From: Bdellovibrionales bacterium
GTDB lineage: Bacteria; Bdellovibrionota; Bdellovibrionia; Bdellovibrionales; JAUICD01
DNA length: 64,000 nucleotides
Direction of reading: 5' to 3'
Assembly (NCBI GenBank): GCA_965197425.1
Contig: CBDANC010000015.1
Location: forward strand, 202,704 to 266,703
Under the pieces are notes generated by a model that did no database searches, was not told where the DNA came from, and worked only from the letters and a program-made list of their open reading frames with translations. A program made the translations under genes and the position numbers. Of the stretch, positions 7,801-59,973 are shown piece by piece; positions within the stretch are counted from its first letter, which is position 1, and every line of letters begins with the position of its first letter.

Positions 7801-8758
7801 TCCTAGTACCAGCAATATTTAATTTTCCTAAATCTCTCCCATCTATTTTTAAATCTTCAAAATCATTGTTAAATGACCAGTAAGTACCCTCGACATCACT
7901 GCCGAAGTTAATGTTTGATTGTATATGTCCATCTAGTGTAGGAAGTTTTGCTATACGATTTGTTTTTAATAAAATATCTCTTATAATTTCCAGATTTGAG
8001 TCTAATTCTAATTCTAGATTTGACTCTAGGATTTTACTTTCATTAGCATTATTTACTTCACCAAAAATATTAGCATGTATTATATTATCTTTTGATGTAG
8101 AGAAATTTTCTATGTACAGCCTATCCTTAAAAATGCTAAATGTAGATAACAAATTTATTTTATCTAAATTTAAATTCAATTTTTGAATATTGAGATCGAA
8201 TCTGGAACTTATATCAAAATCTATCGATCTAAATCTATGTTGAGCTTTCAAAAATATATCTGCTGTAAATTTGTCTTTTCCTCTTGTTACTTCAACTTTA
8301 CTTTTTTCAAGAGTGATAGAGGCAATAGGAGTGACAGCTAAATATTTTGATAGCTTTGCTGAGTACAGTTCCAATTGCTTTTTTCTGGGTTTTAGCGAAC
8401 TTCTTTTACTTGTTCTTTTAGTTTTTGGTAGTTCTATTGGAATCACAGCATCTGACGCTATAATTTTTATTAATCTTAAGTTCGATTTTCTAAATTGAAA
8501 ATTAGGTATCAGAGATATCTGTTCTATGTAAGTATTTTTTGGCTGATCTTTTATATTAAGCTCAACTTGTTTTAGGTGTATACCTAATGGAAGTATGTTG
8601 ATCTTTATGTCTTTTGGTATTATGTGAACATTGTGATCAGATGTTCTGCTGGCTATTTTTTTTGCAAGATAATATTCTAGATTTGGTTTCAGTCCTAAGA
8701 AGAATAGGCTAATTAACCATACTAAAACTAAAACACCAAAGATCTTTTTTTTGGTCAA
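4820..8758 (-). CDS. tamB: TamB-like translocation and assembly module protein (AsmA-like, giant beta-rich periplasm-spanning protein)
   Basis: 1312 aa with an N-terminal signal anchor (KKKIFGVLVLVWLISLFFLGL) and N/D/S/G-rich beta-strand repeats throughout. It is translationally coupled to the Omp85 gene downstream. The start codon is TTG and overlaps the stop of the TPR ORF. Confidence 0.65.
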   Translation of the reverse strand: MTKKKIFGVLVLVWLISLFFLGLKPNLEYYLAKKIASRTSDHNVHIIPKDIKINILPLGIHLKQVELNIKDQPKNTYIEQISLIPNFQFRKSNLRLIKIIASDAVIPIELPKTKRTSKRSSLKPRKKQLELYSAKLSKYLAVTPIASITLEKSKVEVTRGKDKFTADIFLKAQHRFRSIDFDISSRFDLNIQKLNLNLDKINLLSTFSIFKDRLYIENFSTSKDNIIHANIFGEVNNANESKILESNLELELDSNLEIIRDILLKTNRIAKLPTLDGHIQSNINFGSDVEGTYWSFNNDFEDLKIDGRDLGKLNIAGTRINDQLNIRRARLQNRGSDLRTTFIDANQKDTLRFNLDIHSLSLNPFLKSLKVNAPIRGSVVGNLDCEMRYDNFITICNDGSLVLTDFIVNNKKKTIVALRNTQVLGSLSIDKEKIEINGKLDIDGNRLDADGIINFDSGFNFSYAAEEFNLNAIKNNVAGLKLEGVIAGSGAIEGNSKTASFDIDLGVKDFWLDDYLLNDAELDFSYTNRTLFFNNINGSIDISKYNADVRVDLEDKTISLEGEVLEFETSELINVFDRIVKLPFDAFGRGQAKINLDGPLQFNRLNYTLTSNIKNGVIAGEYFDELVFNIKAIEGNVETEQVELKKRNGLVKLDGTGSPDGTIDLVAIANNFMLEDSQILKKTGLNLSGKNTSRLTMKGHVLSPTTRLDGKIDDIRSYNKAMPGIDYGMQITSNNLFLSLDTSDNSLKIYSNIPYSSDFPFELSLQANRWDFTPYLSVFGADISQHSSFLTTDIDVESKSDWLWNADGKIDIFDMNISKNSKELVAKNAKIVFDNGMTNGVIALNGNDSGQRLIFRSNNSRKNFLNMSLAGSIDPDLFSFLTPFLDNIRGMLDIACSFRGKRGDVRLNGHGSIRNGFLDVKDIPHSVENLFGQISFSKNQINIDKATADFASGTAHAKGNIALLGLKNLPTQIDLQLKNVNLNIPEGVETKGDANVKISGSWFPFLFEGTYDTSSVRFVAEFDESETNELYSSNVFLPTSYRERLVGPIQMNIISEFDDDAIINNSMVEGDFTGRLYIKGQPAYPKLLGRVDLKRDSIIKINNNEFLVNVARLDFKGGYEINPDIYLEATTTFKEHTITMYVRGNVDEPDISFTSNTNLGHFDIVNLLAVGDVTDETDNIDIETKIQSQALNVSTSILSQNVLNKVLKEKTGVDVKLSTEMEETGEENVIESTPKIVLKKQWNDKISTILSRRLGNSQTSDMRVEYKLSNNLSITGNYEELEPEEGDTNLISQDERDNNVLGLDLKYQVYFK

Positions 8759-9213
8759 CTTTCCACCTTCTTATTCCATCTGAATAGTAGGGACTGAGCG
8801 TCTCTGAAATCAGGATTTTGGGATATTATCTCTGACATTAAACTTCTTGCCTTACGTTTTTTCCCTAATCCCCAAAGACATTTGGCCCTTGTGTATATTA
8901 CAGTTAGTATTGCCTCTGAGTCTACGGCATATTTTTCTAAAAGCACATCTGTGTGAGACAATGCATCGATGTATTGACCGTCTTCATAATAAGCTTCCAA
9001 TTTTAAAAAATGTGAGGCCTTGCTATCCAATGTGTTAAGTATACTAAGAGACTCTTTGTATGCATCCATTGTGTAAAGACAGATAGCCAGATCATATGCT
9101 GAGTTTGGATATTTTTTGACTGCACTTAAAATAGCTAGAGACAAGGCTCCATCGGACCCTTCGGGCTGCTCAGAGTTTGATTCAACTTTTAAAACTTGAG
9201 ATTTCATAAACAT
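8755..9213 (-). CDS. Small TPR-like protein, first gene of the tamB-bamA operon
   Basis: 152-aa helical-repeat sequence (AYDLAICLYTMDAYKESLSIL ... YYEDGQYIDALSHTDVLLEKY ... KARSLMSEIISQNPDF). Its stop overlaps the TamB start (TTGA). Confidence 0.5.
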   Translation of the reverse strand: MFMKSQVLKVESNSEQPEGSDGALSLAILSAVKKYPNSAYDLAICLYTMDAYKESLSILNTLDSKASHFLKLEAYYEDGQYIDALSHTDVLLEKYAVDSEAILTVIYTRAKCLWGLGKKRKARSLMSEIISQNPDFRDAQSLLFRWNKKVES

Positions 9214-12755: not shown

Positions 12756-13742
12756 GTGGTTGATGATAGATTGCTTGGTGGTAAAAAACTTGAGCTAGAC
12801 TCTGGAGAAAATAATCTTAGACCTAGAAGCTTTGATGAATTCCCAGGGCAAGACAAGGTCAAGGAGAGACTTAAAGTTATGGTTAAGGCAGCCAAGGGTA
12901 GAAATGATCCCCTGGATCATGTTCTCTTTTGTGGCCCTCCAGGATTAGGAAAGACAACTTTGGGTCACATTATAGCTTCTGAGATGGGCGTTGAACTAAA
13001 AGTAACTTCAGGGCCTGCTATTGAAAAAAAAGGAGATCTAGCAGCTATACTGACAAGTTTACCCCCTTCTGCTGTGTTATTTATTGATGAGATACACAGA
13101 ATAAATCGCACAATTGAAGAGTATTTGTATTCTGCAATGGAGGATTTTTATATTGATATAATTACAGGTGATGGTTTGGGTGCGAAGGCTATGCAATTTA
13201 AGCTTGAACCATTTACTCTTGCGGGAGCAACTACCAGATCAGGACTTTTGAATGCTCCTTTTAGAGAGAGATTTGGAATAACAGAGAGATTAGATTTTTA
13301 TTTGCCAAAAGATTTGACCACTATAGTACTTAGATCAGCAAAAATACTTAACATAAAAATAGATGAGGATGGAGCATTTGAAATAGCATCACGATGCCGT
13401 GGAACACCTAGAGTTTCAAACAGACTACTAAAGAGAATACGGGATTATGCTCAAATTAAATTTGATGATCGTATCGATAAGTTTGTTGCTAGAGAGGTGC
13501 TCATAGAGCTTGAAGTTGATAAGCTTGGTTTAGATTACATGGATAGAAAAATTTTGAAAGCCATAGTTGACAAGTTTGAAGGTGGACCTGTTGGAATAGA
13601 TACTATCAGTTCGGCTATGAGTGAGCAAAAGGATACAATCGAGGAAGTCTATGAACCATATTTGATCAAAGAAGGTTTTCTTATCAAAACTCCAAGAGGT
13701 AGAATCGCCACAAAAAGGACCTTAGATCACTTGAAGGAATAG
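12756..13742 (+). CDS. ruvB: Holliday junction ATP-dependent DNA helicase RuvB
   Basis: Walker A is GPPGLGKTTLGHIIA, Walker B is LFIDEIHR and sensor 2 is RGTPRVSNRLLKR. The start codon is GTG. Confidence 0.95.
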   Translation: MVDDRLLGGKKLELDSGENNLRPRSFDEFPGQDKVKERLKVMVKAAKGRNDPLDHVLFCGPPGLGKTTLGHIIASEMGVELKVTSGPAIEKKGDLAAILTSLPPSAVLFIDEIHRINRTIEEYLYSAMEDFYIDIITGDGLGAKAMQFKLEPFTLAGATTRSGLLNAPFRERFGITERLDFYLPKDLTTIVLRSAKILNIKIDEDGAFEIASRCRGTPRVSNRLLKRIRDYAQIKFDDRIDKFVAREVLIELEVDKLGLDYMDRKILKAIVDKFEGGPVGIDTISSAMSEQKDTIEEVYEPYLIKEGFLIKTPRGRIATKRTLDHLKE

Positions 13743-13858
13743 CAACACAATCTTTCGTATTTAGTTGGTCCCTTATTACATAGGCAGTTTACTGCTTTAT
13801 TGGAAATTTGCATTTTTTGGTCGTCACAAAATTAACAATTTATCCTGTGAATTTGTGA

Positions 13859-14515
13859 TTAATGATTTTGAAGCTCATTTATTTTTTCCTCAATTAAGTT
13901 GATTATATTTGTGTTTTCAAGTTGGAGAGCAATTTCTAGAGCGGTTTTACCATAGAAATCTGTTTTCTTTATGTTTATGTCTGGGTGATCAAGTAATGTT
14001 GGAATTATTTCTTCATGTCCATGTAGTACCGCAAAATGTAGAGTATATCTTCCTTTAAACATTATTCTTAAATTAATATCAGGGTGAGCTACTAGAATTT
14101 TTGCAGTCTCAGTGTCTTTATTTTTAATCGCAGTCATCAGAGGTGGTGACTCTACCGCGCGCTTTCTGTAGTTTACATTGATATCGTCTCGTTTAAGAAG
14201 GTGAGAGACTACTTCGTGTTTTTCTAGTTTAGTTGCTAGTGTTAATGCATGGTCTATTGCTTCACTACAAAGGAATCTGGAGATAAAGTTTAAATCCTTG
14301 GGAGCTTCTATTAATTGAAGTGTCTTTGTAACATCTCCATCTTGTATTGCTGTATTCAACTCTGAATACAACCCCTCACATCTAGTTTCAGAATCTGAAG
14401 ATATATCTCTAACTTTATTTTGTTTAGTATCTACACTTGTGCAGGAAACAATAATCGGGGCTAAAAAAACAAATGTTAAAGAAACTTTATTCAACACTTT
14501 CACCATACCTATCAT
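13859..14515 (-). CDS. Ankyrin-repeat lipoprotein
   Basis: It has a signal peptide with a lipobox (FLAPIIVSC) and ANK units such as YTLHFAVLHGHEEIIPTLLDHPDINIKKTDFYGKTALEIA. Confidence 0.8.
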   Translation of the reverse strand: MIGMVKVLNKVSLTFVFLAPIIVSCTSVDTKQNKVRDISSDSETRCEGLYSELNTAIQDGDVTKTLQLIEAPKDLNFISRFLCSEAIDHALTLATKLEKHEVVSHLLKRDDINVNYRKRAVESPPLMTAIKNKDTETAKILVAHPDINLRIMFKGRYTLHFAVLHGHEEIIPTLLDHPDINIKKTDFYGKTALEIALQLENTNIINLIEEKINELQNH

Positions 14516-48682: not shown

Positions 48683-49500
48683 TTGAAAGGTACACTCATC
48701 TCAAATAGTACACCACACAATTTGTAATTTAAAGCACTAGATTCAAATTCTTTTACACAAGTCCATTCTACACATGTATTACCGCTTAAGACACGGATCT
48801 TACCAGAACTCTTTTTAATAAAATCAAGGGTTTCATATAACCCAATGCCTCTATATTTAATCTCTGATTTATTGTTGAGACTGCTTTCCAATTCATTGAA
48901 TGATTCCAATATAATTTGCTCCTCATTCCTTCCACGATCCTGGCCAGTTCTTTGATAAGATTTTAAGAATCCCACACCCACATCGGAAACTGCGACCTCA
49001 ACAATTCCCTTATCATCGTAAACTTGTGCGTGAGCGTATCCCCATCCTTGATTTCCCTTCGGGCCAGAGTGAAAATAAATATTGTTGGCAATCTCGCCAA
49101 ATATATCTGCTAATTCAGTCACCAATGAACCAGGAGCTAGAGGATTAAAAACAGCATGACATTTGTCTTCTAAAGTGCAGTCGCGGTCATCAACAATTTT
49201 AAGTAAAGGAAAAAATTTTGCAGAATCTTGTTTGTTGTGTGGATATGTGTATCCAGTACCATCAAATAACCCCATTCTCCCTCCATAGTTCTTAACATTC
49301 TCATTTGAGGGCGGAATTATAAAAACCTTCAACTTACAGTCAAATGCCAAATCAATTATACAACGCACTCTTACTAGAACAGCAGGCGTAAAAAATTGTA
49401 TATCTGATAGGTCAATTTTGATACTTGAGTATTTTCCAGAATGAATGTCATATGGCGACGGGCCTGTCTTTGTAATATCTGCATTAATAGTGAGGTTCAC
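48679..49500 (-). CDS. GHKL-superfamily ATPase (RsbW/SpoIIAB-like kinase fold) with a unique N-terminal domain
   Basis: The N-box is EIANNIYFH (ExxxNxxxH), the G1 box is VSDVGVGF (DxGxG) and the G2 box is YRGIGLYE. Confidence 0.65.
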   Translation of the reverse strand: MNLTINADITKTGPSPYDIHSGKYSSIKIDLSDIQFFTPAVLVRVRCIIDLAFDCKLKVFIIPPSNENVKNYGGRMGLFDGTGYTYPHNKQDSAKFFPLLKIVDDRDCTLEDKCHAVFNPLAPGSLVTELADIFGEIANNIYFHSGPKGNQGWGYAHAQVYDDKGIVEVAVSDVGVGFLKSYQRTGQDRGRNEEQIILESFNELESSLNNKSEIKYRGIGLYETLDFIKKSSGKIRVLSGNTCVEWTCVKEFESSALNYKLCGVLFEMSVPFK

Positions 49501-49654
49501 TAACTTATCTCCTGATCATTATTATTATATCAACAACAGTTCTATCCATCCTTCTAAGTATTAATATTCTCAGATACAACTGTTATATTTATCTCGAACC
49601 ATTCTACCAGGTTTTTATGTAAAGGACATATCTCTGTTTTGATCTAGGCTTAGA

Positions 49655-49809
49655 CCCAAAGAACCTTTAAAAAGGCCAGAGAAAATTACTTTTTCTATGT
49701 CTGGGATGAGTCACCAGATGAAGATGTGTACGAGGTAAGGTGGGTCACCACTTTTGATACAACTACCGAGGATGTTGAAAACTTTGTGGCTGCCCTAAGC
49801 CAACTTTAA
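49655..49809 (+). pseudogene. Displaced 3' fragment of ltaE
   Basis: It translates to ...ARENYFFYVWDESPDEDVYEVRWVTTFDTTTEDVENFVAALSQL*, compared with the intact ARENYFFYVWDESPDEDMYEVRWVTCFDTSEEDVKNFVASLKAL*. There is no upstream coding continuation. Confidence 0.85.
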
Positions 49810-49876
49810 ATAGATAAAGCTAAAAAAATATCATCATAAAAAACATCTTTGGTTTTGCAAAAATTTATTAGTTGGT

Positions 49877-49898
49877 GTAAGGCTAATGCTTATGTTGA
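49877..49898 (+). repeat. Left copy of the 22-bp direct repeat
   Basis: It is identical to 56807-56828. Confidence 0.9.
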
Positions 49899-50551
49899 AG
49901 TTCCTAGAACAAAACATAAAAAGAATCTGTTATAGTTTTGATGAGCCATTGGAGCATGTAGTGACAGTTGAATCTGGGTCAAATAGCGTGGAAGAGACCT
50001 TATCTAAGCTTAGGGATCTTATCAATTCAAGTACCCATAAAAGAAAAAAACTGATCGATGATAGAAAGAAGTGGCTAATTGTTTGTAGTGCTATGGATGT
50101 AATCGGTGATACTGAATTGGCAATTAAATCATACGAGGATACTAAAGAAAAAATTGATGATGGCAAAACTTACCTTTTTATTTACGGGTTACTGCAATCA
50201 ATGTATGTGCAACAAGATGCTGTAACTAACATTAGAAAAACGTTAAACGTACCTCCTTTCAATAAAGACGAGGAGGAGAAACTAAAATATATTAGAGAAA
50301 TTCGCAATGATATAATCGGACATCCAACTAAACGAGAGCGAGGAGATGTTAAGAGGTCAAATTTTATAACCAGACGTGGTTTAAGTTTGAAAAGCGTTAC
50401 TCTCATAAAAAGTCACTTCGACAAAGAGTCGGGTGATAAAATAGTTGAAATAAAACCTTTTGATCTAATCCAATGGCAGAGGGAGGTAATTACTAATTTT
50501 TTAAATTTTGTAATTTCTAGTTTAAAAGAACAAATAAGCAAACATAGATGA
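49886..50551 (+). CDS. HEPN-like protein (candidate abortive-infection RNase)
   Basis: 221 aa. The motif IREIRNDIIGH fits the HEPN Rx4-6H signature (R-N-x-x-x-x-H) and resembles the lRN..AH block of Abi-type HEPN proteins. The first four codons (MLML) derive from the duplicated hemJ start. Confidence 0.4.
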   Translation: MLMLKFLEQNIKRICYSFDEPLEHVVTVESGSNSVEETLSKLRDLINSSTHKRKKLIDDRKKWLIVCSAMDVIGDTELAIKSYEDTKEKIDDGKTYLFIYGLLQSMYVQQDAVTNIRKTLNVPPFNKDEEEKLKYIREIRNDIIGHPTKRERGDVKRSNFITRRGLSLKSVTLIKSHFDKESGDKIVEIKPFDLIQWQREVITNFLNFVISSLKEQISKHR

Positions 50552-50631
50552 TGACGGCCTAACAGCTGATTCTTTGTGATCTTTACTATCGAAATCATCT
50601 AAAACTAATAAAGGGGATATAATTTCAAGGT

Positions 50632-51321
50632 TTAAAATTCAACCTCCTCCACCTTTTGATAGAAATTTTCTAGTTCTTTTACATTTATACGAAACGCTGT
50701 TCCATGGTTTCTTGCCCTAGTTTCCTTGTCATGCAATCTTAGATCTAATAACAATTGTCCACTTTGAAATTGGTTTTTAAGGATAGATTGAGTTACTCCT
50801 CCAGATAATAACCTGGCTCTATTAAATAAAAAATATTCAACACCTTTTCTCTCTTCAACCTTTGCCTTAACTAACAAAATATTTTTAACTTTTTTTGTAA
50901 AACGTTTCTCAATTTCTTTCAACTCCCACTTAGCAATTACATTTCCATCTATACTTCTTACAGAGACAAAATCATCTTCAACTAATAAAAAAAGTCCGGT
51001 GCTGTTTGGCTTAAGGCCCATCGTATAATACAAGCCAAGTCTGCCACTATCATCTTTGCTTCCATACTTCCTAGCAGCATCCAAAGGTTTCATTATCCAT
51101 GCATTGCGATTGAAGGTGAACAAGGTTATCAGCCCTGTATGATTTTCCCTATATGCTTTCAACTCTATTTTATCCAAATCTGGAGAGCTTATATTATTTT
51201 CTTTAATTTCAAGTAGAGTTTCTAAAGTATATCCAATACCAGTTGGTCCCTTTCTAAGTGTCCTTAAATATCCCTTTTTTTTTACTTTAGTCAGTTTCTT
51301 TCTTATCTCCTCTAGATTCAT
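50632..51321 (-). CDS. Type II restriction endonuclease, MvaI/BcnI family
   Basis: 229 aa. The blocks KKKGYL...GPTGIGYTLETLLEIKENNISSPDLDKIELKAY...ITLFTF and the C-terminal LDLRLHDK...NHGTAFRI parallel my recollection of BcnI (KNKGYL...GQILERQFGVQENNITLGDLGEFELKG...LTLFHK...DLCIDQD...DRGPHLRI). Confidence 0.7.
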   Translation of the reverse strand: MNLEEIRKKLTKVKKKGYLRTLRKGPTGIGYTLETLLEIKENNISSPDLDKIELKAYRENHTGLITLFTFNRNAWIMKPLDAARKYGSKDDSGRLGLYYTMGLKPNSTGLFLLVEDDFVSVRSIDGNVIAKWELKEIEKRFTKKVKNILLVKAKVEERKGVEYFLFNRARLLSGGVTQSILKNQFQSGQLLLDLRLHDKETRARNHGTAFRINVKELENFYQKVEEVEF

Positions 51322-51328
51322 TTGTACT

Positions 51329-52576
51329 TCACTCTTTGTTGAAAACTACTACATACTCATTGGTCATAGTTTTTGATTTCACCCCAGCTCTATTAGTAGG
51401 GGAATTTTTTGAAGGCATTACTTTGTTATGAATATCTCTGACAAATATTCCTTCAAAATTAAGATCCATACTGTGGAAGAAAGATGCTGTTATTTGATCC
51501 ATAGGTATTTGAAATCCTTTTACTGTCCTATTCCCAACCACAAAACAAACCTTTCCTTTTTTGTTGAGGTTTTTGTCCACATTTCTTACTACATTGTAGT
51601 AGCCATTGAAAAAGTGCAAGACTTCCTCTGCTCTCTTGGGATCCACACTTTTAATGTTATCAACCGTATCCATTAAAATTTCATATTTGCTGAGTTCTCT
51701 ATTTAGTCTACCTTCTTTTCCTAAACCCTGTTTATCAATCTTGTAGCCACTAATATTATTAGCAATTAAGTCGTTTACCCAATCAGCTCCAAAGCTTGTA
51801 TATTGTCCATAAGCAACCGTTGTACTACTATCACCGTAGGGCGGAGAAGTGATAACCAAGTCGTATTTTAAAGGGATTTTATCTTCTGAGTTACCGAATA
51901 TAGGTCTGCTTAGTTTTTTAGGTACACTAGCGCTCAAAAATACTTTTACCATATCTTCAAGATGCAATAAGAATCTTGGAAAAACCTCATTTTTTGTTCT
52001 TGCTATTCTCTCTTTATCAATCCTATATCTTTTGAATTCACCGTTTCTTGTTAAAGATTGATTACGGCATATAAAAGCAAAAATTGTTGTAAAAAAATCC
52101 CTGTACTCGTAAGTTCTGTTTTTCAAAATCCATCTTATCCTGCCAAGATCATTGGCCACTTCCTCAGTATACCAGTAGTCTATATTTGTTATTTTAGGAA
52201 TATCAACTTGAGTATGATCAAAAAGATGATTTGCTCCCTCAATTAAAGTAGCTTTTAAATCCTTGTACTCTCTAAGCAATTTTTCTTTTTGATAGGCTGC
52301 TGTTTTTGCTCTTGCAATGAGAAGTGCCATAGGGTTTATATCAAAGCCTATAGATTCATACCCTTTTATTTTGGATTGGAGTAGGGTCACTCCACTCCCA
52401 CAAAATGGATCAAAAATCACGTTTCCTACTTTTGCATATTTCTCAATAAGAAAATTCACCAACAAAGGATGCAACATAGCAGGATAGGGATGTATTTTGT
52501 GTCTTTCCCTCAAAAGTTGTTCACCATAAAAAGAGAGGTCTTTTTTTTCGGTTCTCTTATAATTATATTCAAACAT
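51329..52576 (-). CDS. DNA methyltransferase, amino-MTase (probably N4-cytosine)
   Basis: Motif I is FDPFCGSGVTLLQ and motif IV is VITSPPYGD. SPPY is typical of N4-cytosine MTases. The gene ends 7 nt upstream of the endonuclease gene. Confidence 0.8.
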   Translation of the reverse strand: MFEYNYKRTEKKDLSFYGEQLLRERHKIHPYPAMLHPLLVNFLIEKYAKVGNVIFDPFCGSGVTLLQSKIKGYESIGFDINPMALLIARAKTAAYQKEKLLREYKDLKATLIEGANHLFDHTQVDIPKITNIDYWYTEEVANDLGRIRWILKNRTYEYRDFFTTIFAFICRNQSLTRNGEFKRYRIDKERIARTKNEVFPRFLLHLEDMVKVFLSASVPKKLSRPIFGNSEDKIPLKYDLVITSPPYGDSSTTVAYGQYTSFGADWVNDLIANNISGYKIDKQGLGKEGRLNRELSKYEILMDTVDNIKSVDPKRAEEVLHFFNGYYNVVRNVDKNLNKKGKVCFVVGNRTVKGFQIPMDQITASFFHSMDLNFEGIFVRDIHNKVMPSKNSPTNRAGVKSKTMTNEYVVVFNKE

Positions 52577-52820
52577 TTTAGTTTAACCAGTTCTCTATAA
52601 GCCAATTATTTTCATAGCATACTTTTTACAAGTATCGCTATTTAGTATGTGGAGTCAATTTTTTTGTAGTAGATACTAGGATAATTCAAACAAAATAGCT
52701 TTCGATGATTTTGATAAACCAAATCTAAAACTCTTTGCTGAGAATTTACTAAGAAATATAGGCAGCGGCTTGAAATATAGCGCAGGGTAAAAAGGATCTT
52801 ACACTATTAGCTTAGGTGCT

Positions 52821-53657
52821 GTGTTTGGCAACAACCTTCCTTTTTGCTTCTTAGAAACAAATCTCTCCTCAAATAAAATCTTGAAATTTATAAAGTTCTT
52901 AGATAGAACTGCTTTCAATATGTCTAATTCAAGCGGTATACTGAAGGATCATAAAAAGAAAGGAACAAAATTAATTCCTCCTTTTCCAGCTAGTTTCCCT
53001 GACATCCGTCAGGTTCCATATATTGACATTACTCTTCCTGAATTGATTTGGTTTGGGACTCTTAATATGAAGTTAGGAATTAGAGGTGCTGCAGATTTGA
53101 TAACAGAAACTGTCAAAGTTCTGCAGAAAAACAAGTGTGAAGTTGTGGTGTTTGCAAGTTCCTTCAGTGAACTAGAGGAATTTCAAAAAAATAAAATTAT
53201 AGAATCTTTAAGAAAAACTTCGATTTTAAATAACATACAAAACACTTTAAATGATTTTATATATTTTTATCCTGAATGCCCTTTGGCATTTTTATTAGAA
53301 GACAAGAAATTACAGTTAACTGATAAGAATTTTATTGAGAACTTTAAAAAGTATTTAAGCAAGCTATATAACAAAAGAAGTAGTGAAGGTATTTTTATGC
53401 AAGCATTAGCTGTATATAAGATGTTTTTGTCGGGAAAACTTAAAGCTGCATCTCATACATCACTTGCTAATTTTCCTGAAGTTGAACATTACCCTAATAC
53501 TCAAATATCCAAGGAAATTGCAGCTTCGATTTGTTGCGTTTTAAATTTATTTTGCGGAACTTGTGTTATTGATAAGGGTTTGCAGGACTGGTCTAAATAT
53601 TTTTGGAATAGATCTCGTCAGATAGAACCTATTGATTTAACTAAAATTGAGTGGTAA
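52821..53657 (+). CDS. Hypothetical protein (island gene, no recognisable motif)
   Basis: The ORF is 278 aa from a GTG start. The alternative ATG at 52920 (MSNSSGILKDH) is more plausible. The sequence looks predominantly helical. Confidence 0.45.
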   Translation: MFGNNLPFCFLETNLSSNKILKFIKFLDRTAFNMSNSSGILKDHKKKGTKLIPPFPASFPDIRQVPYIDITLPELIWFGTLNMKLGIRGAADLITETVKVLQKNKCEVVVFASSFSELEEFQKNKIIESLRKTSILNNIQNTLNDFIYFYPECPLAFLLEDKKLQLTDKNFIENFKKYLSKLYNKRSSEGIFMQALAVYKMFLSGKLKAASHTSLANFPEVEHYPNTQISKEIAASICCVLNLFCGTCVIDKGLQDWSKYFWNRSRQIEPIDLTKIEW

Positions 53658-54480
53658 TTTTAAAATGGAAGAGAGTATAGAACATAAGACGCTCACATCT
53701 TTATTAAATAATATTAAAGAATATAAAAAGATTGTTCGTAAAGAGTTTTCAGAGAGGATGAAATTATCTAGTGTAAATGTAGAGGAAGATGAAAAACGTG
53801 CAGTTGTTGGCGGACTTCTGGCAAGACAAGTTTCACTAGCAACTGAGTTTTGTAAATGCTCAAGTATTTGGACTCTACATATCGCCCCAATAATTCAGCG
53901 TTGTATGATTGATGTACATATAACGCTAGCTTGGATACTAGAAGACCCAGAAAAAAGATGTAAGGAATACATTGAGTATGGGTTAGGCCAAGTAAAGTTG
54001 ATGATCGAACATAGAAAGCTTCAATTGAAGTCAGATGGTGTGGAAGCAGATGACGATCCTGTTTTAAATGCGTATGAGGATTGGTTAAATAATCAGAAGC
54101 ATGAAGCGTTTGTAGAAGTAAATTTAGGAAGATGGTCAAATAAATCTGTAAGAAAAATGGCAGAAGAATCTGACAATTTAGATATATATAATTATATCTA
54201 TACACCATTTTCTGGTTGTGTCCATAGTATGTGGAATCACATTGAAAGGCTTAACTTGACCAGATCAACAAATCCTTTGCATAAAGGTTTACCAATCCCT
54301 GTTGCTTCAAAACTTCCAGTAAGTATGGAGGAGTTGTTTCTAGTAGCAAAATACTTACATAAAACTTTTTTATTATATGATGAAAAAACTGGTTGCAATG
54401 TACCGGCTCCAAGTGCGTATGACTTTTTAAACAAAGCTATTGATAAAACAGCGTCAGATTTAAAAAAATACAACAAATAG
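53647..54480 (+). CDS. Hypothetical protein (island gene, possibly DUF5677-like all-alpha protein)
   Basis: The ORF is 277 aa, and the likely start MEESIEHK at 53665 lies 7 nt after the upstream stop. The blocks LLARQVSLATEF...IIQRCMIDVHITLAWIL and YTPFSGCVHSMWNHIERL recall DUF5677 from memory only. Confidence 0.4.
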   Translation: MSGNFKMEESIEHKTLTSLLNNIKEYKKIVRKEFSERMKLSSVNVEEDEKRAVVGGLLARQVSLATEFCKCSSIWTLHIAPIIQRCMIDVHITLAWILEDPEKRCKEYIEYGLGQVKLMIEHRKLQLKSDGVEADDDPVLNAYEDWLNNQKHEAFVEVNLGRWSNKSVRKMAEESDNLDIYNYIYTPFSGCVHSMWNHIERLNLTRSTNPLHKGLPIPVASKLPVSMEELFLVAKYLHKTFLLYDEKTGCNVPAPSAYDFLNKAIDKTASDLKKYNK

Positions 54481-54694
54481 ACTTACATTTAAATGGTTGT
54501 TTAAAATTGTGCTGATTTAAACATAAAAAAGAAAGCAATCCTAAGGTTGCTCCGTACCTCTCAATCGAAACCCAACCGTAATTAGTTTCACTAATAACAT
54601 ATGGCAAAAAAGAGTTAAAAAATCGAATCAACCTTGCCATGACTAGTTCATCTTTAGGTGAGGCAAAAGAACTAGTAGACGTTGAACTTATTAA

Positions 54695-55255
54695 TCAGCG
54701 TTTCTTTAAAAATCTGCGGATTGCTGAATCACTCACCCTCTGAACCTTGCTCACCGTCATCGGATGTGAACCGAGGGTTTCGATATTATAAATGACTCCT
54801 TCATTTACAAGGTGTCTAATTGCAGGGTTAAGGCGGCGAGGCTTCCAACCATATTGCTCTGCTATTTCTTTTGGTTGAGCTGTAGATTCTTTGTCATTCA
54901 ACATATCTCGAGCAATTCGTTTAGCATCCTCCTTAGCATCCCATCCCATGAAGTACCGGTCAAATTCAATAAACAAAGACTCATCAGTAATAATCCTTTG
55001 GTCAGAGAAGGAGCCAAATGTTCTGTTTATCTTCAAGAAACCTTGTTCTTTAAGTCTGTTGACCGCATCTTCTGTGTCCTCTAAACTCAAACCCGTTTCT
55101 TCCGCAATATTTTTCGCAGCCAATAGTGGATCGTGATTAAACCCGTTTTTTGATTGTTTAAGAAGTAGTTTTATAACTTTTACTTCAGCTTCTGAGTATC
55201 CAGGTATATAATTGTTGTGTGCAACATCTTTATCTACTATAGTTTCCATTTCCAA
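54695..55255 (-). CDS. Hypothetical protein with winged-helix-like segments
   Basis: 186 aa. The segments AEETGLSLEDTEDAVNRLKEQGFLKI and AIRHLVNEGVIYNIE look like wHTH recognition helix and wing. No family was recognised. Confidence 0.35.
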   Translation of the reverse strand: MEMETIVDKDVAHNNYIPGYSEAEVKVIKLLLKQSKNGFNHDPLLAAKNIAEETGLSLEDTEDAVNRLKEQGFLKINRTFGSFSDQRIITDESLFIEFDRYFMGWDAKEDAKRIARDMLNDKESTAQPKEIAEQYGWKPRRLNPAIRHLVNEGVIYNIETLGSHPMTVSKVQRVSDSAIRRFLKKR

Positions 55256-55534
55256 ATAACCTCCCTTTTTGAAGTTTATATTTAAAAAAATAATTTATGT
55301 TTATACCAAGATTCTCTATACCTATACATCATCTACGCACATTCATGAAGGCTCAGAAGGTTGTTTGGCATTTCTCCATCTGCCTCGGTCTTTAAATATT
55401 CATTACCATACCTACTATTAGCTACGACCATTGACACTCTTTGTCCGTTCTGCATAACAAAAAAAGAATATCTATTCGCCTTAATACCACATATTGCTTC
55501 CTCTTGAGAAAGCTTCTAGTTTGTGCTATCACTA

Positions 55535-56557
55535 TTAACCTTCACTTCCAATAGTGGGATTCACATTATTTCTTATGATCTCTAACACTCTTTGAGATGA
55601 AGCTACATTATCCTGTTCGCCTTGAGTAAAGCCAGTATTCTGATGTGAGAAAATGCATTGTGCTGTCTGTAGTAATACAGCACTTTTTGTCGCTTTGTCC
55701 AGACTTGCATCTATAAATTCCTCAAATGTACCCAAGGCATTTTGCCTGTGCTGATTTACCACTAGATTGTGCGACTCAACTCTGTAAATTCTTGCCGACA
55801 AAACAAAGAAAAAAGAAAGCACACTAAACATCAACACTTTTGACAAACTAATTTGAACCAACTTAGAAGTGATGATAGCTTCATTCCAACCCATGGAGTG
55901 ACGTACATTCCAAATAAGAAAAGCAACCAGTACAGCACCAAAACTCCCCGTTACCCAGAGCCATATTTTTTTAGCTTTTTGATGCCTATCTACTTCTTTT
56001 TGGAAATGAAGGATATGTTGAGCCACACCCTCACCAGCAATTTTGTCTCTGGTTTTGCCAAGAATATTACTTAAGGCTGCTTCACTTTCTTCCGCCCTTT
56101 TCTTAAGTTTTTTAATCTCAGCAACATCCTTATCTGCCTGCTGTGTTGTACCTTCACTATTACAAAAGGCAATGATCGGAGCTATTTTCTTAAACCACTC
56201 ATTGTAAGCTCCGTCAATTCGATTAATTATATTATTTCTTTGCTCTAATGGATTACCTTGTTCAGCATTGAAATTCGAAATTTCGTTGAATAAATCCAAC
56301 GCACTCCTTGCATAACCATCAAATTCTACCGCACATGAACTAGTAATGAGGTCGAAATTTACATTTGAGAGTTTGTTAAATAGCTCTGAAATTTGTTCAA
56401 ATAATTTAGCTCCTTCTTGGAAACCTAGCTTTGTTCCAAGATCTTCGGTTCTAACAAGATCCTTTACTTTTATCTTGTCTAGCTCGTCCAAAGATCCCTT
56501 TAAGGAAGACAGAGATTCCTGATGTCTTTGTTTAATATCCTGCACAACACTCCTCAC
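55535..56557 (-). CDS. Coiled-coil protein with two C-terminal-half transmembrane helices (candidate membrane effector)
   Basis: 340 aa with a helical, charged N-terminal region of about 190 aa. TM1 is IWLWVTGSFGAVLVAFLIWNV and TM2 is VLMFSVLSFFFVLSARIY. A conserved-looking block HNLVVNQHRQNALGTFEEF follows. Confidence 0.45.
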   Translation of the reverse strand: MRSVVQDIKQRHQESLSSLKGSLDELDKIKVKDLVRTEDLGTKLGFQEGAKLFEQISELFNKLSNVNFDLITSSCAVEFDGYARSALDLFNEISNFNAEQGNPLEQRNNIINRIDGAYNEWFKKIAPIIAFCNSEGTTQQADKDVAEIKKLKKRAEESEAALSNILGKTRDKIAGEGVAQHILHFQKEVDRHQKAKKIWLWVTGSFGAVLVAFLIWNVRHSMGWNEAIITSKLVQISLSKVLMFSVLSFFFVLSARIYRVESHNLVVNQHRQNALGTFEEFIDASLDKATKSAVLLQTAQCIFSHQNTGFTQGEQDNVASSQRVLEIIRNNVNPTIGSEG

Positions 56558-56806
56558 TTAATTTCTTATCTAGCAGTTAACCAAGCTATTCCAATCGGTA
56601 CTCTGATTAGATATAACTCTCATTTCTTATATAACATTCTATTTAGGAAGGTTAAAAAGACCTGCCTTGTGTCTAACAAGATGCGAATATGTGTGTGATC
56701 CTTAATTAAGTCAACAGTAGTTTAAAAAAAATTGGTAAGTTGCCGTTCTGATCCGCCACGACTCCGATCCAAAAAATTTAGCCTTTGCCAGATCAATGAG
56801 ATTCAG

Positions 56807-56828
56807 GTAAGGCTAATGCTTATGTTGA
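56807..56828 (+). repeat. Right copy of the 22-bp direct repeat (contains the hemJ RBS and start)
   Basis: It is identical to 49877-49898. Confidence 0.9.
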
Positions 56829-57250
56829 TTTTTAAGGCCTTACACCTAATAACCATGGTTTGTTGGTTCGCTGGATTGTTTTATATGTTCAGGCTATTTG
56901 TATATCAAGCTAAGAACCAATCTAATAAAAGCAACTCAGATTTACTTAAGCAAATGGCTTTTAGGCTATACTACTACATAACTACACCATCCATGGTTTT
57001 AACTTTGCTATTTGGAATGTTGCTGCTAATGCATATACCTGTTTATTTGCATGTACCCTGGTTTCATGTGAAAATGCTGTTTATACTTATTCTACTGGTA
57101 TATCATTACTTTGTTGGATATACACTCCACAAGTTTATGAAGGATGAAATTTTTTTGTCAGTAAGGCTGTGTAGAATAATAAATGAGGTCCCAACATTGC
57201 TACTGATAATTATAATTGGACTTGCAGTTTTAAAACCAAATCTACTATGA
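56816..57250 (+). CDS. hemJ: Protoporphyrinogen IX oxidase HemJ (CopD-like UPF0093 membrane protein)
   Basis: MLMLIFKALHLITMVCWFAGLFYMFRLFVY matches the HemJ N-terminal signature (KalHiiavvaWfaGLfYLpRLFVY). The ORF-track start at 56732 is an upstream extension with no support. Confidence 0.75.
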   Translation: MLMLIFKALHLITMVCWFAGLFYMFRLFVYQAKNQSNKSNSDLLKQMAFRLYYYITTPSMVLTLLFGMLLLMHIPVYLHVPWFHVKMLFILILLVYHYFVGYTLHKFMKDEIFLSVRLCRIINEVPTLLLIIIIGLAVLKPNLL

Positions 57251-59973
57251 CACAAACTTACGAACCAAAAAAACTAGAAGCCCGAATATACAAAATGTGG
57301 GATGAGGGTGGTTATTTTAAGCCCAGCTTTGGTTCCGAAAAACCTACATTTTGTATAATGATTCCTCCTCCAAATGTTACAGGCTCTCTTCACCTGGGAC
57401 ATGCCTTAGACCATACAATACAAGATGTGCTAGTAAGGTGGCATAGAATGAAAGGGTTTAATACTCTATGGCAGTCAGGGACCGATCATGCAGGTATTGC
57501 TACACAGAGTGTGGTTGAAAGACATCTAGAAAAAAAAGATCTTAATAGAAAAACCTTAGGTAGAGAAAAATTTGTAAAAGAAGTGTGGAAGTGGAAAACA
57601 AAATACGAGAACCGTATCATATCACAAATGAAGAAACTGGGAGACTCTTGTGATTGGAGTAGGAATAGATTTACCATGGATGACGGCCTTTCAAAGGCGG
57701 TCAAAAAGGTTTTTGTAAATTTATATAATGAAGGGCTAATTTATAGAGGTAAAAGACTAATAAATTGGGATCCTAAACTTTCTAGCGCACTATCAGACCT
57801 TGAAGTAGAACACCAAGAAAAAGATGGCCATCTGTGGCATGTCAAATACCCTTTTTCTGATAGCGATAAATTTTTGGTGGTCGCAACAACCAGACCAGAA
57901 ACCATTCTGGGGGATACCGCTATTGCCGTTCATCCGGAAGATGAAAGATATAAAAAATATATAGGCAAAACAGTTATATTAGAATTCCTTAATAAGGAAA
58001 TAAAAGTTATAAGTGATGAATTTGTGGATCAGAGTTTTGGGTCAGGTGTGGTTAAAATTACACCAGCACACGACTTCAAAGATTATGAAGTTGGGTTAAG
58101 GCACAAGTTAGATTTTATTAACATTTTAAATCCAGATGGAACATTAAATAATAATGCCGGTAAATATGAAGGATTAAAAGTATTAGAAGCTAGAAAAATG
58201 ATCTTGAAAGATCTTAAAAAACACAATTTATTAGTTAAAAAAGAAAAGTATAAAGTTACCACTCCTATTAGTCAAAGAACTGGTGAAGCTGTAGAACCTT
58301 ATTTATCTGATCAATGGTTTGTTAGTACAAAGAGTATTGCTCCACCGGCAGAAAAAGTTGTTCAAGATGGAACTATTTCATTTGAACCAGAGCATTGGGC
58401 TAAGACTTACTTGCATTGGATGAGTAATATTCAAGATTGGTGTATTTCCAGACAACTTTGGTGGGGTCATAGAATACCAGCATGGCACTGCAATGAGTGT
58501 AAAGCTATTACTGTTAGTGAATCTACTCCGAGTAAATGTTGTAAATGTAAATCGGTTGATATTTATCAGGACAATGATGTATTGGATACCTGGTTTAGTT
58601 CAGCACTTTGGCCTTTTAGCACTTTAGGTTGGCCTGAACAAACAAAAGATCTAACAACTTTCTATCCTACAAATGTTTTGGTAACTGGACATGATATAAT
58701 ATTCTTCTGGGTTGCTAGAATGATAATGTCAGGCCTTCATCATGTTAAAGGCATTCCATTTAGAACAGTTTTTGTTCATGGGATAATAAGAGATGAAAAA
58801 GGCGAAAAAATGTCCAAATCTTTAGGAAACACATTAGATCCTTTAGATTTGATAGACAAATCAGGTGCAGATGCACTAAGAATTACACTTATGTCACAAG
58901 TATATGGTGGTAATGATATTAAGTTTTCAGAGAAAAGACTTGAGGGGTATAGAAATTTTTTAAATAAAATTTTTAATGCTACAAAGTTCTGTCTATCATT
59001 TCACAAAAATATAAAACATAAATTTAGAAAAGAAGATATGTCAATCTACGATAAGTGGATTATACAAAAATTGAGTGTTGCCTACCATGATATGGATGGT
59101 TATCTTAGTGACTTTAAGTTTGCAGAAGCTGTCTTAACAATTTATTCATTTGTATGGAACGATTTTTGTGACCGGTACTTAGAGCGAATTAAACCAATAC
59201 TTTATAAGGGTGAAGAAAAAAATAAGGCTACAACACTTAATGTTTTAACAAATGTTTTGGATAGAATTTGTAGGTTATCTCACCCTATAATTCCGTTCTT
59301 AACAGAAGACATTTATCAAAAACTACCTATAAAGAACAAGGCTTGTATCATAGATAGTTATCCTAACCATCACAACGATTCAGACTTTTTAAGCATGTAC
59401 GATCCAAACAAACCAGAAGATATAAATGATGCAGACAATATAATGGATATAATTACTTATGTAAGACAAATAAAAGGTGAAATTTTCCAAGAAGGAAAAC
59501 TTACATTAAGTATACGAACTGAGTCGCAAGATGATGAAGGTGAGGAGTATTTTAATCATTTAATTGAATCCCATAAAGATGATATAGAACAGTCGTCTGG
59601 CAGTAATATTTCTGTTGCAAATAAATCTGATATCGGACCTCCTAACATTCCTTTTACAGAAAAGCAAATTAGAGAAAAAGAAACAAACATGTATTTGGAT
59701 ATTAAAGATAAAACATATCGCATATTCAAAATTATAGAACTGCAAAAAACATCTATTAAATTTTGTATTCCATTACAAGTGTATATGTTGAATCTTGAAG
59801 AAATAACCAAAAAGGTAAAAAAGATAAAAAAAGAAATTGAGAGTTTAGAAAATAGACTTAAAAATAAAGCTTTTAGAGAAAAAGCACCACCAAAGGTAGT
59901 AGAGAAAGACGAAAAGCAATTAAAAACTTTAAAAATTGAACTTGCAACTAAAAGATGGCCAGAAGAAGACTAG
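57247..59973 (+). CDS. valS: Valine--tRNA ligase
   Basis: It has a class I HIGH motif (PPPNVTGSLHLGHA), KMSKS (KMSKSLGN), a CP1 editing-domain length consistent with ValRS and a C-terminal coiled coil. Confidence 0.95.
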   Translation: MTQTYEPKKLEARIYKMWDEGGYFKPSFGSEKPTFCIMIPPPNVTGSLHLGHALDHTIQDVLVRWHRMKGFNTLWQSGTDHAGIATQSVVERHLEKKDLNRKTLGREKFVKEVWKWKTKYENRIISQMKKLGDSCDWSRNRFTMDDGLSKAVKKVFVNLYNEGLIYRGKRLINWDPKLSSALSDLEVEHQEKDGHLWHVKYPFSDSDKFLVVATTRPETILGDTAIAVHPEDERYKKYIGKTVILEFLNKEIKVISDEFVDQSFGSGVVKITPAHDFKDYEVGLRHKLDFINILNPDGTLNNNAGKYEGLKVLEARKMILKDLKKHNLLVKKEKYKVTTPISQRTGEAVEPYLSDQWFVSTKSIAPPAEKVVQDGTISFEPEHWAKTYLHWMSNIQDWCISRQLWWGHRIPAWHCNECKAITVSESTPSKCCKCKSVDIYQDNDVLDTWFSSALWPFSTLGWPEQTKDLTTFYPTNVLVTGHDIIFFWVARMIMSGLHHVKGIPFRTVFVHGIIRDEKGEKMSKSLGNTLDPLDLIDKSGADALRITLMSQVYGGNDIKFSEKRLEGYRNFLNKIFNATKFCLSFHKNIKHKFRKEDMSIYDKWIIQKLSVAYHDMDGYLSDFKFAEAVLTIYSFVWNDFCDRYLERIKPILYKGEEKNKATTLNVLTNVLDRICRLSHPIIPFLTEDIYQKLPIKNKACIIDSYPNHHNDSDFLSMYDPNKPEDINDADNIMDIITYVRQIKGEIFQEGKLTLSIRTESQDDEGEEYFNHLIESHKDDIEQSSGSNISVANKSDIGPPNIPFTEKQIREKETNMYLDIKDKTYRIFKIIELQKTSIKFCIPLQVYMLNLEEITKKVKKIKKEIESLENRLKNKAFREKAPPKVVEKDEKQLKTLKIELATKRWPEED

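Follow-up and report, generated by a model that had tools for sequence, protein, structure and literature searches.

The stretch of DNA analysed here (hereafter the window) comprises 64,000 nucleotides of contig CBDANC010000015.1 (positions 202,704 to 266,703, forward strand) in the genome assembly GCA_965197425.1 of a Bdellovibrionales bacterium. At the junction between the ltaE and hemJ genes it carries a mosaic of seven genes, an island of defence cargo that is flanked on both sides by the same 22-bp sequence. The best explanation for this island is an integrase-independent insertion with target duplication, to which we assign a probability of roughly 55%. The repeat is exact, the sister species retains the empty site, our searches for a responsible recombinase found none, and scars of a similar kind recur in the genus. 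From these observations we infer a route of recombination and a type of donor.

The repeat, GTAAGGCTAATGCTTATGTTGA, occurs in two identical copies, and in the alignment no similarity extends beyond the 22 bp at either flank, the edges being sharp. The window contains no further match with three or fewer mismatches, and none of 100 shuffles gave one. In the whole 1.6-Mb genome the exact copies are those two only; the next-nearest matches carry 3 and 4 mismatches and lie on the other strand. Among 300 random pairs of 500-nt windows located 1–9 kb apart in the same genome, the longest common word measured 8–12 nt, and once 19 nt, so that a 22-nt repeat is far outside chance. An earlier sequence-only reading of the window had reported the perfect direct repeat at both island ends and had considered that the 22-mer might belong to a frequent dispersed repeat. 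The former proved exact and unique in the genome, while the latter does not agree with the two copies found.

The genome scan revealed one other genome of the genus (G001), a Bdellovibrionales metagenome-assembled genome available as a single 1.60-Mb contig (OZ241914.1). The genome examined here (G000) is a 1.6-Mb draft of 15 contigs, 99.4% complete, with an estimated contamination of 2.5%. Around the locus, G001 and the window are approximately 76% identical at the DNA level. In G001, the end of ltaE is followed by 44 nt, a single GTAAGGCTAGCTGTCATGTTGA (at 1553209), and then directly by hemJ-valS. Window positions 49848–49898 and those from 56807 onward align to this same site and overlap there by exactly 22 nt: the upstream flank of the left copy (49848–49876) aligns to the hemJ upstream region of G001, and the sequence from 56807 on to its hemJ-valS. 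The proposal that the insertion duplicated its target at the hemJ translation start was therefore borne out, since both junctions align to a single-copy empty site; the search for such sites in other genomes returned an uninterrupted ltaE-hemJ-valS order, and this island-free relative has one copy of the repeat and not two. The two 22-mers of the window are identical to each other and the G001 copy differs from them at 4 of 22 positions, which makes the duplication younger than the split of the two species.

A second scar was found immediately upstream. The 3' end of ltaE is present twice, as copy A, which terminates the intact gene at 48342, and as copy B, which ends at 49809; a small cassette (cassette 1) separates them. 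The copies share a perfect core of 44 nt (48205–48248 = 49672–49715). Over the last 156 nt of ltaE, 121 positions are identical between A and B, 112 between A and G001, and 116 between B and G001. The differences between A and B amount to 10, 8, and 17 at first, second, and third codon positions, respectively. Since they fall mostly at third positions, the two copies diverged as coding genes in separate lineages, and cassette 1 thus came with the homologous gene end of a relative. Judged from these alignments, the displaced copy B is the native one, and copy A, which forms the terminal ~155 nt of the window ltaE, probably arrived together with the cassette from a rather distant relative.

Alignment of the whole G000 and G001 genomes yielded 43 usable insertions specific to one lineage, of which 23 lie in G000 and 20 in G001; their borders were tested for shared words. 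Beside the ltaE-hemJ composite, three insertions stand out by their boundary repeat. The first, in G000, has a repeat that spans the overlapping stop of a penicillin-binding protein gene together with the ribosome-binding site and start of uvrA, and its cassette contains a RhuM-family gene and an unknown gene for 317 aa. The second, at an amidohydrolase gene of G000, includes two genes for small secreted proteins, a DUF6782-like putative metallopeptidase and a protein of 160 aa. In the third, located in G001, the repeat spans the 3' end of tpiA upstream of secG and brackets three unknown genes; the corresponding empty site lies at approximately 216380–216450 of contig C13 in G000. For each of the four other scars (ltaE, uvrA, amidohydrolase, and tpiA), the other genome has an empty site with one copy. 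The five repeats of the five events are mutually unrelated in sequence and variable in length, with perfect cores of 23–44 nt in the four others. The remaining 38 insertions showed boundary matches in the chance range (8–12 nt; 37 insertions) or represented a nested composite interval (one insertion).

Insertion with long target duplication has been described for restriction-modification units, which are bounded by long duplications of variable length and contain no other mobile element (Nobusato 2000, Gene 259:99; Furuta, Abe & Kobayashi 2010, NAR 38:2428, PMC2853133). In the published class, the repeats often extend across the start or stop of translation, the target genes remain intact, and the hosts are mostly naturally competent species (PMC2853133). 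Furuta et al. 2010 required homologues of both the restriction and the modification gene, an insert below 20 kb without other mobile genes, a single-copy empty site, and a duplication longer than 30 bp (PMC2853133). The hemJ island contains both genes, is smaller than 20 kb, has no mobility gene, and corresponds to a single-copy empty site, but its duplication is 22 bp long. Three other repeats of G000 exceed the 30-bp cut-off (the 44-nt core within ~155 nt at ltaE, and those of 36 and 39 nt); the tpiA repeat of G001 has a perfect core of 23 nt within ~95 nt.

The features common to the hemJ event and the published class are a restriction-modification insert below 20 kb that lacks a mobility gene, a repeat that has one counterpart at the empty site and spans a translation start, intact genes on both flanks, and a repeat length that varies within the genome. 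Unlike the published cases, the hemJ insert is a seven-gene mosaic and not only a restriction-modification pair, its repeat is 22 bp, and the sister events in the genus carry no restriction-modification genes. Moreover, several of the repeats seen here are diverged alleles, which points to homologous donor DNA, whereas the publication does not commit itself to a mechanism and suggests restriction breaks. The host differs as well: its Bdellovibrionales genome is reduced, and the search for tyrosine recombinases in it gave none. We thus treat the hemJ event as a variant with a short duplication that behaves as insertions with long target duplication do.

Profile searches of the island against Pfam, NCBIfam, PADLOC, and PHROGs revealed no integrase, transposase, or phage matches. 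A six-frame search with PF00589 identified no tyrosine recombinase in G000 or G001, hence no enzyme of the XerC/XerD type, although 2–17 matches were obtained in each of 11 other family- or order-level relatives searched. Capture by a dif/Xer-type mechanism, as used by integrative mobile elements exploiting Xer, was dropped because no Xer-type recombinase was found in the two genomes. The sequence-only reading had considered the length of the duplication more typical of the core of an attachment (att) site and had suggested looking for a cognate integrase elsewhere in the genome. That search, with PF00589, gave nothing; one resolvase-type serine recombinase gene was found, a lone gene for 239 aa located between dcd and an amino-acid dehydrogenase gene (G000 C12:4670–5389), that is, in a housekeeping context. 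The att-core reading is unsupported, because there is no recombinase in the island, no tyrosine recombinase was found in either genome of the genus, and the other four cassettes have unrelated repeats of variable length.

The corresponding alternative, a decayed site-specific element in which the 22-mer represents the attL/attR core at the hemJ 5' end while the integrase has been deleted or acted in trans, is unlikely in our estimate. It agrees with a perfect, sharply bounded repeat within the usual size range of att cores and with the mosaic structure of the island, whose truncated first gene indicates that internal deletions occurred. The closest homologue of this truncated gene (64% identity) adjoins a RES toxin gene and a tyrosine integrase gene on an unrelated contig, and duplications of gene 3' ends that supply a replacement end, as at ltaE, the amidohydrolase gene, and tpiA, are also typical of integrase-borne islands. 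Five unrelated cores of differing length, however, cannot all be explained by a single site-specific recombinase, and five different integrases, all lost from the genus with none detected, would be unparsimonious. Furthermore, no duplication of the hemJ start was seen in 12 metagenomic hemJ loci, which come from relatives only 45–54% identical, and the 22-mer had no match in a viral contig collection.

Among known elements, this alternative would correspond to the cis-mobilizable elements (CIMEs) left by integrative and conjugative elements (ICEs), for example at the fda 3' end in Streptococcus thermophilus. CIMEs lack an integrase, are flanked by att sites at the end of a gene, and often have restriction-modification cargo. 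Their att sites are those of a known ICE family, and the integrase of that family occurs in the same species. The hemJ island resembles them in being integrase-less, repeat-flanked, and located at a gene end with restriction-modification cargo, but the genus yielded neither an integrase nor an ICE of this kind, and each event has its own unrelated repeat.

Target duplications made by transposons are of fixed length, typically under 10–14 bp. The duplications measured here are 22 bp at hemJ and 23–57 bp or more elsewhere, far from a short fixed length, and the island ends have no terminal inverted repeats (local score of inverted similarity 7, p = 0.65). Given these repeat lengths, the missing terminal inverted repeats, and the absence of a transposase from the island, a DNA transposon was ruled out. 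Profile searches of G000 detected neither rve nor Ku; a single DDE_Tnp_1 gene occurs on another contig, outside the island.

A related explanation is a true target-site duplication, in which a staggered break with nicks 22 nt apart captured a linear fragment and was filled in, the process being transposase-like or driven by restriction breaks or end joining. Since no homology extends past the 22 bp at hemJ, fill-in of a staggered break stays a live rival for this locus, and the identity of the two copies agrees with it. The uvrA event (55/57) could reflect the same process followed by two later mutations. Furuta et al. suggested that double-strand breakage associated with restriction-modification may underlie long target duplication, and IS1630 was reported to make duplications of 19–26 bp (PMC2853133). 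Against this stand the lack of a transposase, of terminal inverted repeats, and of Ku, and the divergence between the copies at ltaE, the amidohydrolase gene, and tpiA; the ltaE copies are two coding alleles and not a fill-in product. No CCWGG or CCSGG sites were present at the junctions, and the comparison of G000 with G001 revealed no clear avoidance of these sites. Overall, we consider a true target-site duplication improbable, slightly more so than a decayed site-specific element.

An error of assembly, namely a circular or strain-variant sequence sharing the 22-mer that was threaded into the chromosome path, is conceivable in a draft of 15 contigs with the estimated contamination given above. 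Nevertheless, 22 bp is below the final k-mers of common assemblers, the G000 repeats are 22, 36, 39, and 44 long and do not reflect one k-1 overlap, the island has no replication gene and shares the composition of the genome, and a comparable scar is present in the single-contig chromosome of G001. We regard such an artefact as very unlikely.

The integrase-independent insertion that we favour may be pictured as follows. The island would have entered the ltaE-hemJ junction after the split from the sister species, duplicating the 22 bp that comprise the ribosome-binding region and first codons of hemJ. The source may have been DNA taken up from a related bacterium which already carried the cassette beside the same housekeeping gene, and this DNA would have been joined via short perfect identity at the gene boundary. 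Joining could have proceeded by a single crossover of a circularised fragment or by homologous pairing at one end and an illegitimate join at the other; either option would leave the boundary sequence on both sides and both flanking genes whole. The diverged-allele repeats of the other events point to joining of a relative's DNA. The left copy fuses the old hemJ initiation region in frame to the truncated HEPN-like gene, and the presence of two copies leaves the island open to exact loss through recombination between them.

The second option resembles homology-facilitated illegitimate recombination during natural transformation, in which homology anchors one end and the other is joined illegitimately (PMC3240628). 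Both capture foreign DNA independently of an integrase, which fits an island arriving beside the hemJ or ltaE of a relative. With homology-facilitated illegitimate recombination, the usual outcome is replacement or loss of recipient DNA and not its duplication, and the hemJ island differs in this respect. RecA, DprA, and a ComEC-like gene are present in G000.

Several points weigh against this explanation. Competence genes are widespread in non-transformable bacteria, so that their presence says little, and 22 bp is at or below the length usually deemed sufficient for a RecA-dependent crossover. The same 22 bp are under the cut-off of Furuta et al. No diverged homology extends past the repeat at the hemJ event itself; what points to imported homologous DNA is the neighbouring event and the others. 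With one sister genome at hand, and with neither ltaE nor valS adjoining hemJ in more distant relatives, the polarity of the change rests on the structure of the scar and the identity of the repeats. Finally, no donor or closer relative was found: the best homologues of the island proteins are 44–64% identical, an exact-protein look-up of the first island open reading frame (ORF) gave no match, and a metagenome scan with HemJ recovered only the relatives of 45–54% identity mentioned above, none closer.

The position of the repeat affects the starts of two genes. Only the second ATG of the repeat is present in G001, whose HemJ begins with MLIFK, and HemJ proteins of more distant relatives have similarly short N-termini. 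This makes 56822 the most likely start of hemJ in the window, and TAAGG is then located 9 nt upstream of it. The repeat had been described as providing the ribosome-binding site and first codons (MLML) of hemJ; TAAGG and the start indeed lie within it, but by the G001 start the duplicated coding part is reduced to 'ML'. The left copy retains the native intergenic region of 66 nt, TAAGG, and both ATGs, and the reading frame of these ATGs continues through 62 nt of island DNA into the HEPN-like ORF. However, an in-frame GTG at 49961, preceded by GGAG 6 nt upstream (49951–49954), gives the N-terminus the length of that of the closest homologue. The HEPN-like gene thus probably brought its own start, and the hemJ ATG would merely add ~23–25 codons; we estimate that an open in-frame run of such length is expected by chance in ~7% of junctions. 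The suggestion that the first island gene borrows the hemJ start holds for the fusion, which is real, and for the native upstream DNA kept in front of it, less so for the start itself in view of the probable GTG; selection for the fusion has no support.

Another proposal of the same reading, namely that hemJ-valS now lies downstream of ~7 kb of foreign DNA, was confirmed: this length separates the genes from the DNA formerly upstream of them, and the final 2 kb before hemJ are on the opposite strand and transcribed away from it. hemJ keeps its ribosome-binding site and start but has lost that upstream DNA. In the native region left of the island, the promoter scan detected a promoter-like TTTAAA-18-TATCAT at 49805–49834, whereas the 249-nt island edge (56558–56806) gave no good sigma-70 match on the + strand. 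At the right junction, TTGCCA-17-TAAGGC has a register identical to that of the native TTGCAA-17 nt-TAAGGC at 49855–49883. The chance of a matching register is ~5e-4, a value judged post hoc, and the spacers of the two sites are unrelated (4 of 17 positions identical). The right-junction site could, purely as a hypothesis, act as a hybrid promoter for hemJ-valS. The presence of diverged hemJ upstream DNA at the right end of the island was considered and rejected (local alignment p = 0.05–0.10), only the -35-like hexamer being common.

A comparable arrangement is known for SXT/R391, which inserts at the 5' end of prfC by means of its own tyrosine integrase and a 17-bp core. Both insertions lie at the 5' end of a gene in an essential operon and displace the upstream region, so that the end of the element must supply expression signals. 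At hemJ, in contrast, no integrase was found, and provision of a promoter, by the TTGCCA-17-TAAGGC site, is hypothetical.

The features of the locus and the three scars outside the window are listed in Table 1.

Table 1. Features of the ltaE-hemJ-valS region (window coordinates) and boundary-repeat scars elsewhere in the two genomes of the genus
Feature	Position	Strand	Evidence and remarks
ltaE-like threonine aldolase	47272..48342	+	PF01212, E=1e-40
Cassette 1, 1.3 kb	48343..49653	-	Absent from G001
STAS-like DUF4325 gene in cassette 1	48401-48682	-	Library matches
273-aa gene in cassette 1	48679-49500	-	phrog_3364; weak PDC-M65A match
Copy B, displaced native ltaE 3' end	49654..49809	+	Contiguous with native intergenic region and left 22-mer
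Native ltaE-hemJ intergenic region, now upstream of HEPN-like ORF	49810..49876	+	Alignment to G001; promoter scan
Left 22-bp repeat copy	49877..49898	+	Exact match; native ltaE-hemJ intergenic DNA to the left, island DNA to the right
HEPN-like ORF, 221 aa, 3'-truncated	49886..50551	+	176 homologues, mostly 305-325 aa
Island body, 6,908 bp	49899..56806		Absent from sister species; no terminal inverted repeats, no recombinase gene; G+C as genome
Type II restriction endonuclease, MvaI/BcnI family	50632..51321	-	Pfam PF15515, E=2e-36; PADLOC REase_II
N4/N6 DNA methyltransferase, endonuclease partner	51329..52576	-	Pfam N6_N4_Mtase; PADLOC MTase_II, E=3e-91
278-aa protein, no family	52821..53657	+	No match in Pfam, NCBIfam, PADLOC, PHROGs; 11-nt overlap with next gene
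DUF5677 protein, like C-terminal half of PADLOC DitA	53647..54480	+	PF18928, E=4e-23; DitA, E=1e-13
Winged-helix protein, 186 aa	54695..55255	-	Weak HTH_24, MarR-like, TrmB-like matches
Coiled-coil protein, 340 aa, defence-associated	55535..56557	-	Read as having two transmembrane segments from sequence alone; homologues in BREX context
TTGCCA-17 nt-TAAGGC at right junction	56785..56813	+	Read from sequence; TTGCCA = 56785-56790
Right 22-bp repeat copy	56807..56828	+	Exact match; holds TAAGG and hemJ start codon (second ATG, 56822)
hemJ (UPF0093/HemJ family), intact	56822..57250	+	PF03653, E=2e-39; 86-87% aa identity to G001
valS	57247..59973	+	Pfam tRNA-synt_1, Anticodon_1, Val_tRNA-synt_C; start overlaps hemJ stop
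uvrA scar, insert 2.3 kb (outside window)	G000 C15:321944/324241 (interval 321944-324297)		36 nt perfect, 55/57 overall
Amidohydrolase scar, insert 1.5 kb (outside window)	G000 C15:430696/432186 (interval 430696-432224)		39-nt repeat, gene 3' end, diverged alternative tails
tpiA scar, insert 1.95 kb	G001 1342491/1344445 (interval 1342451-1344540)		23-nt perfect core in ~95 nt, ~88% identity

The G+C content of the island (0.30–0.38) equals that of the rest of the genome. Between the modules of the island, no repeat scars above chance were found. Alignment of the HEPN-like ORF to its family of ~310-aa proteins revealed that ~95 C-terminal residues are missing and that homology begins at about residue 33. 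A second, more complete-looking paralogue of this family is encoded at G000 C13:190003–190389 and matches the C-terminal part missing from the window ORF (38% to the P0002 C-terminus). The restriction-modification pair shows a match of ~68% at the nucleotide level to a pair on a Ca. Azobacteroides plasmid, which is a distant match and the sole plasmid match for the island. A paralogue of the island methyltransferase gene with 75% nucleotide identity is present elsewhere in the genome. It lies in a 5-kb G000-specific insertion (positions 3929–8925 of locus L016, G000 C13:243000–258000), which also contains a tandem duplication of ~570 nt with 76% identity (81–82% over the best ungapped stretches of 300 and 109 nt); no repeat above chance was found at the boundaries of this insertion.

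The genes for the 278-aa protein and the DUF5677 protein form a DUF5677/DitA-like pair. A single-sequence fold of the 278-aa protein, predicted as a check for a hidden recombinase, was unusable (predicted local distance difference test score 36). On two independent metagenomic contigs, homologues of the 340-aa protein (43–44% identity) are encoded within BREX operons, where they lie between brxC and pglX, and some of its relatives match PF19658. This suggests that they constitute an uncharacterised family of BREX accessory genes.

The 273-aa protein of cassette 1 had no match in a search of the PDB. A second DUF4325 STAS-like gene (74% nucleotide identity to that of the window) occurs in locus L017 (G000 C13:152000–166000). 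It is part of a 7.6-kb block that also includes metallo-beta-lactamase-fold genes and an HTH/ImmA-like pair; at either end lies the 3' part of a gene for a small membrane protein, the two copies being 73% identical (6138–6377 versus 13740–13976). Several dispersed repeat families of 50–120 nt are also distributed across the contigs of G000, for example ...AAAAACCGACCGCAGGGAGGTTATTTCAATTGGA... and ...GTTACTGTGTCAAAACGTAATTCACCTGGCAAAAGTC...

The movement of small defence islands without a recombinase is poorly understood. The hemJ locus and the four sister events largely remove site-specific recombination as an explanation, and at least some of these events import the end of the target gene from a relative. 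Insertion at hemJ also poses a concrete problem of expression, since the essential operon hemJ-valS must now be transcribed from the edge of the island. What the present case mainly adds to the described class is that such events recur in a genus in which no tyrosine recombinases were detected, and that there is evidence for the import of homologous gene ends. We tentatively propose, with clearly less confidence than for the hemJ insertion itself, that the genus gains accessory cassettes mainly by a homology-primed, integrase-independent route, in which DNA of relatives is joined via 20–45 nt of identity at a gene start or stop and the boundary is duplicated. If this is true, the process would apply to defence cargo in general, restriction enzymes would not be its driving force, and the lineage would offer a natural system for the mechanism of insertion with long target duplication, which has been unsolved since 2000.

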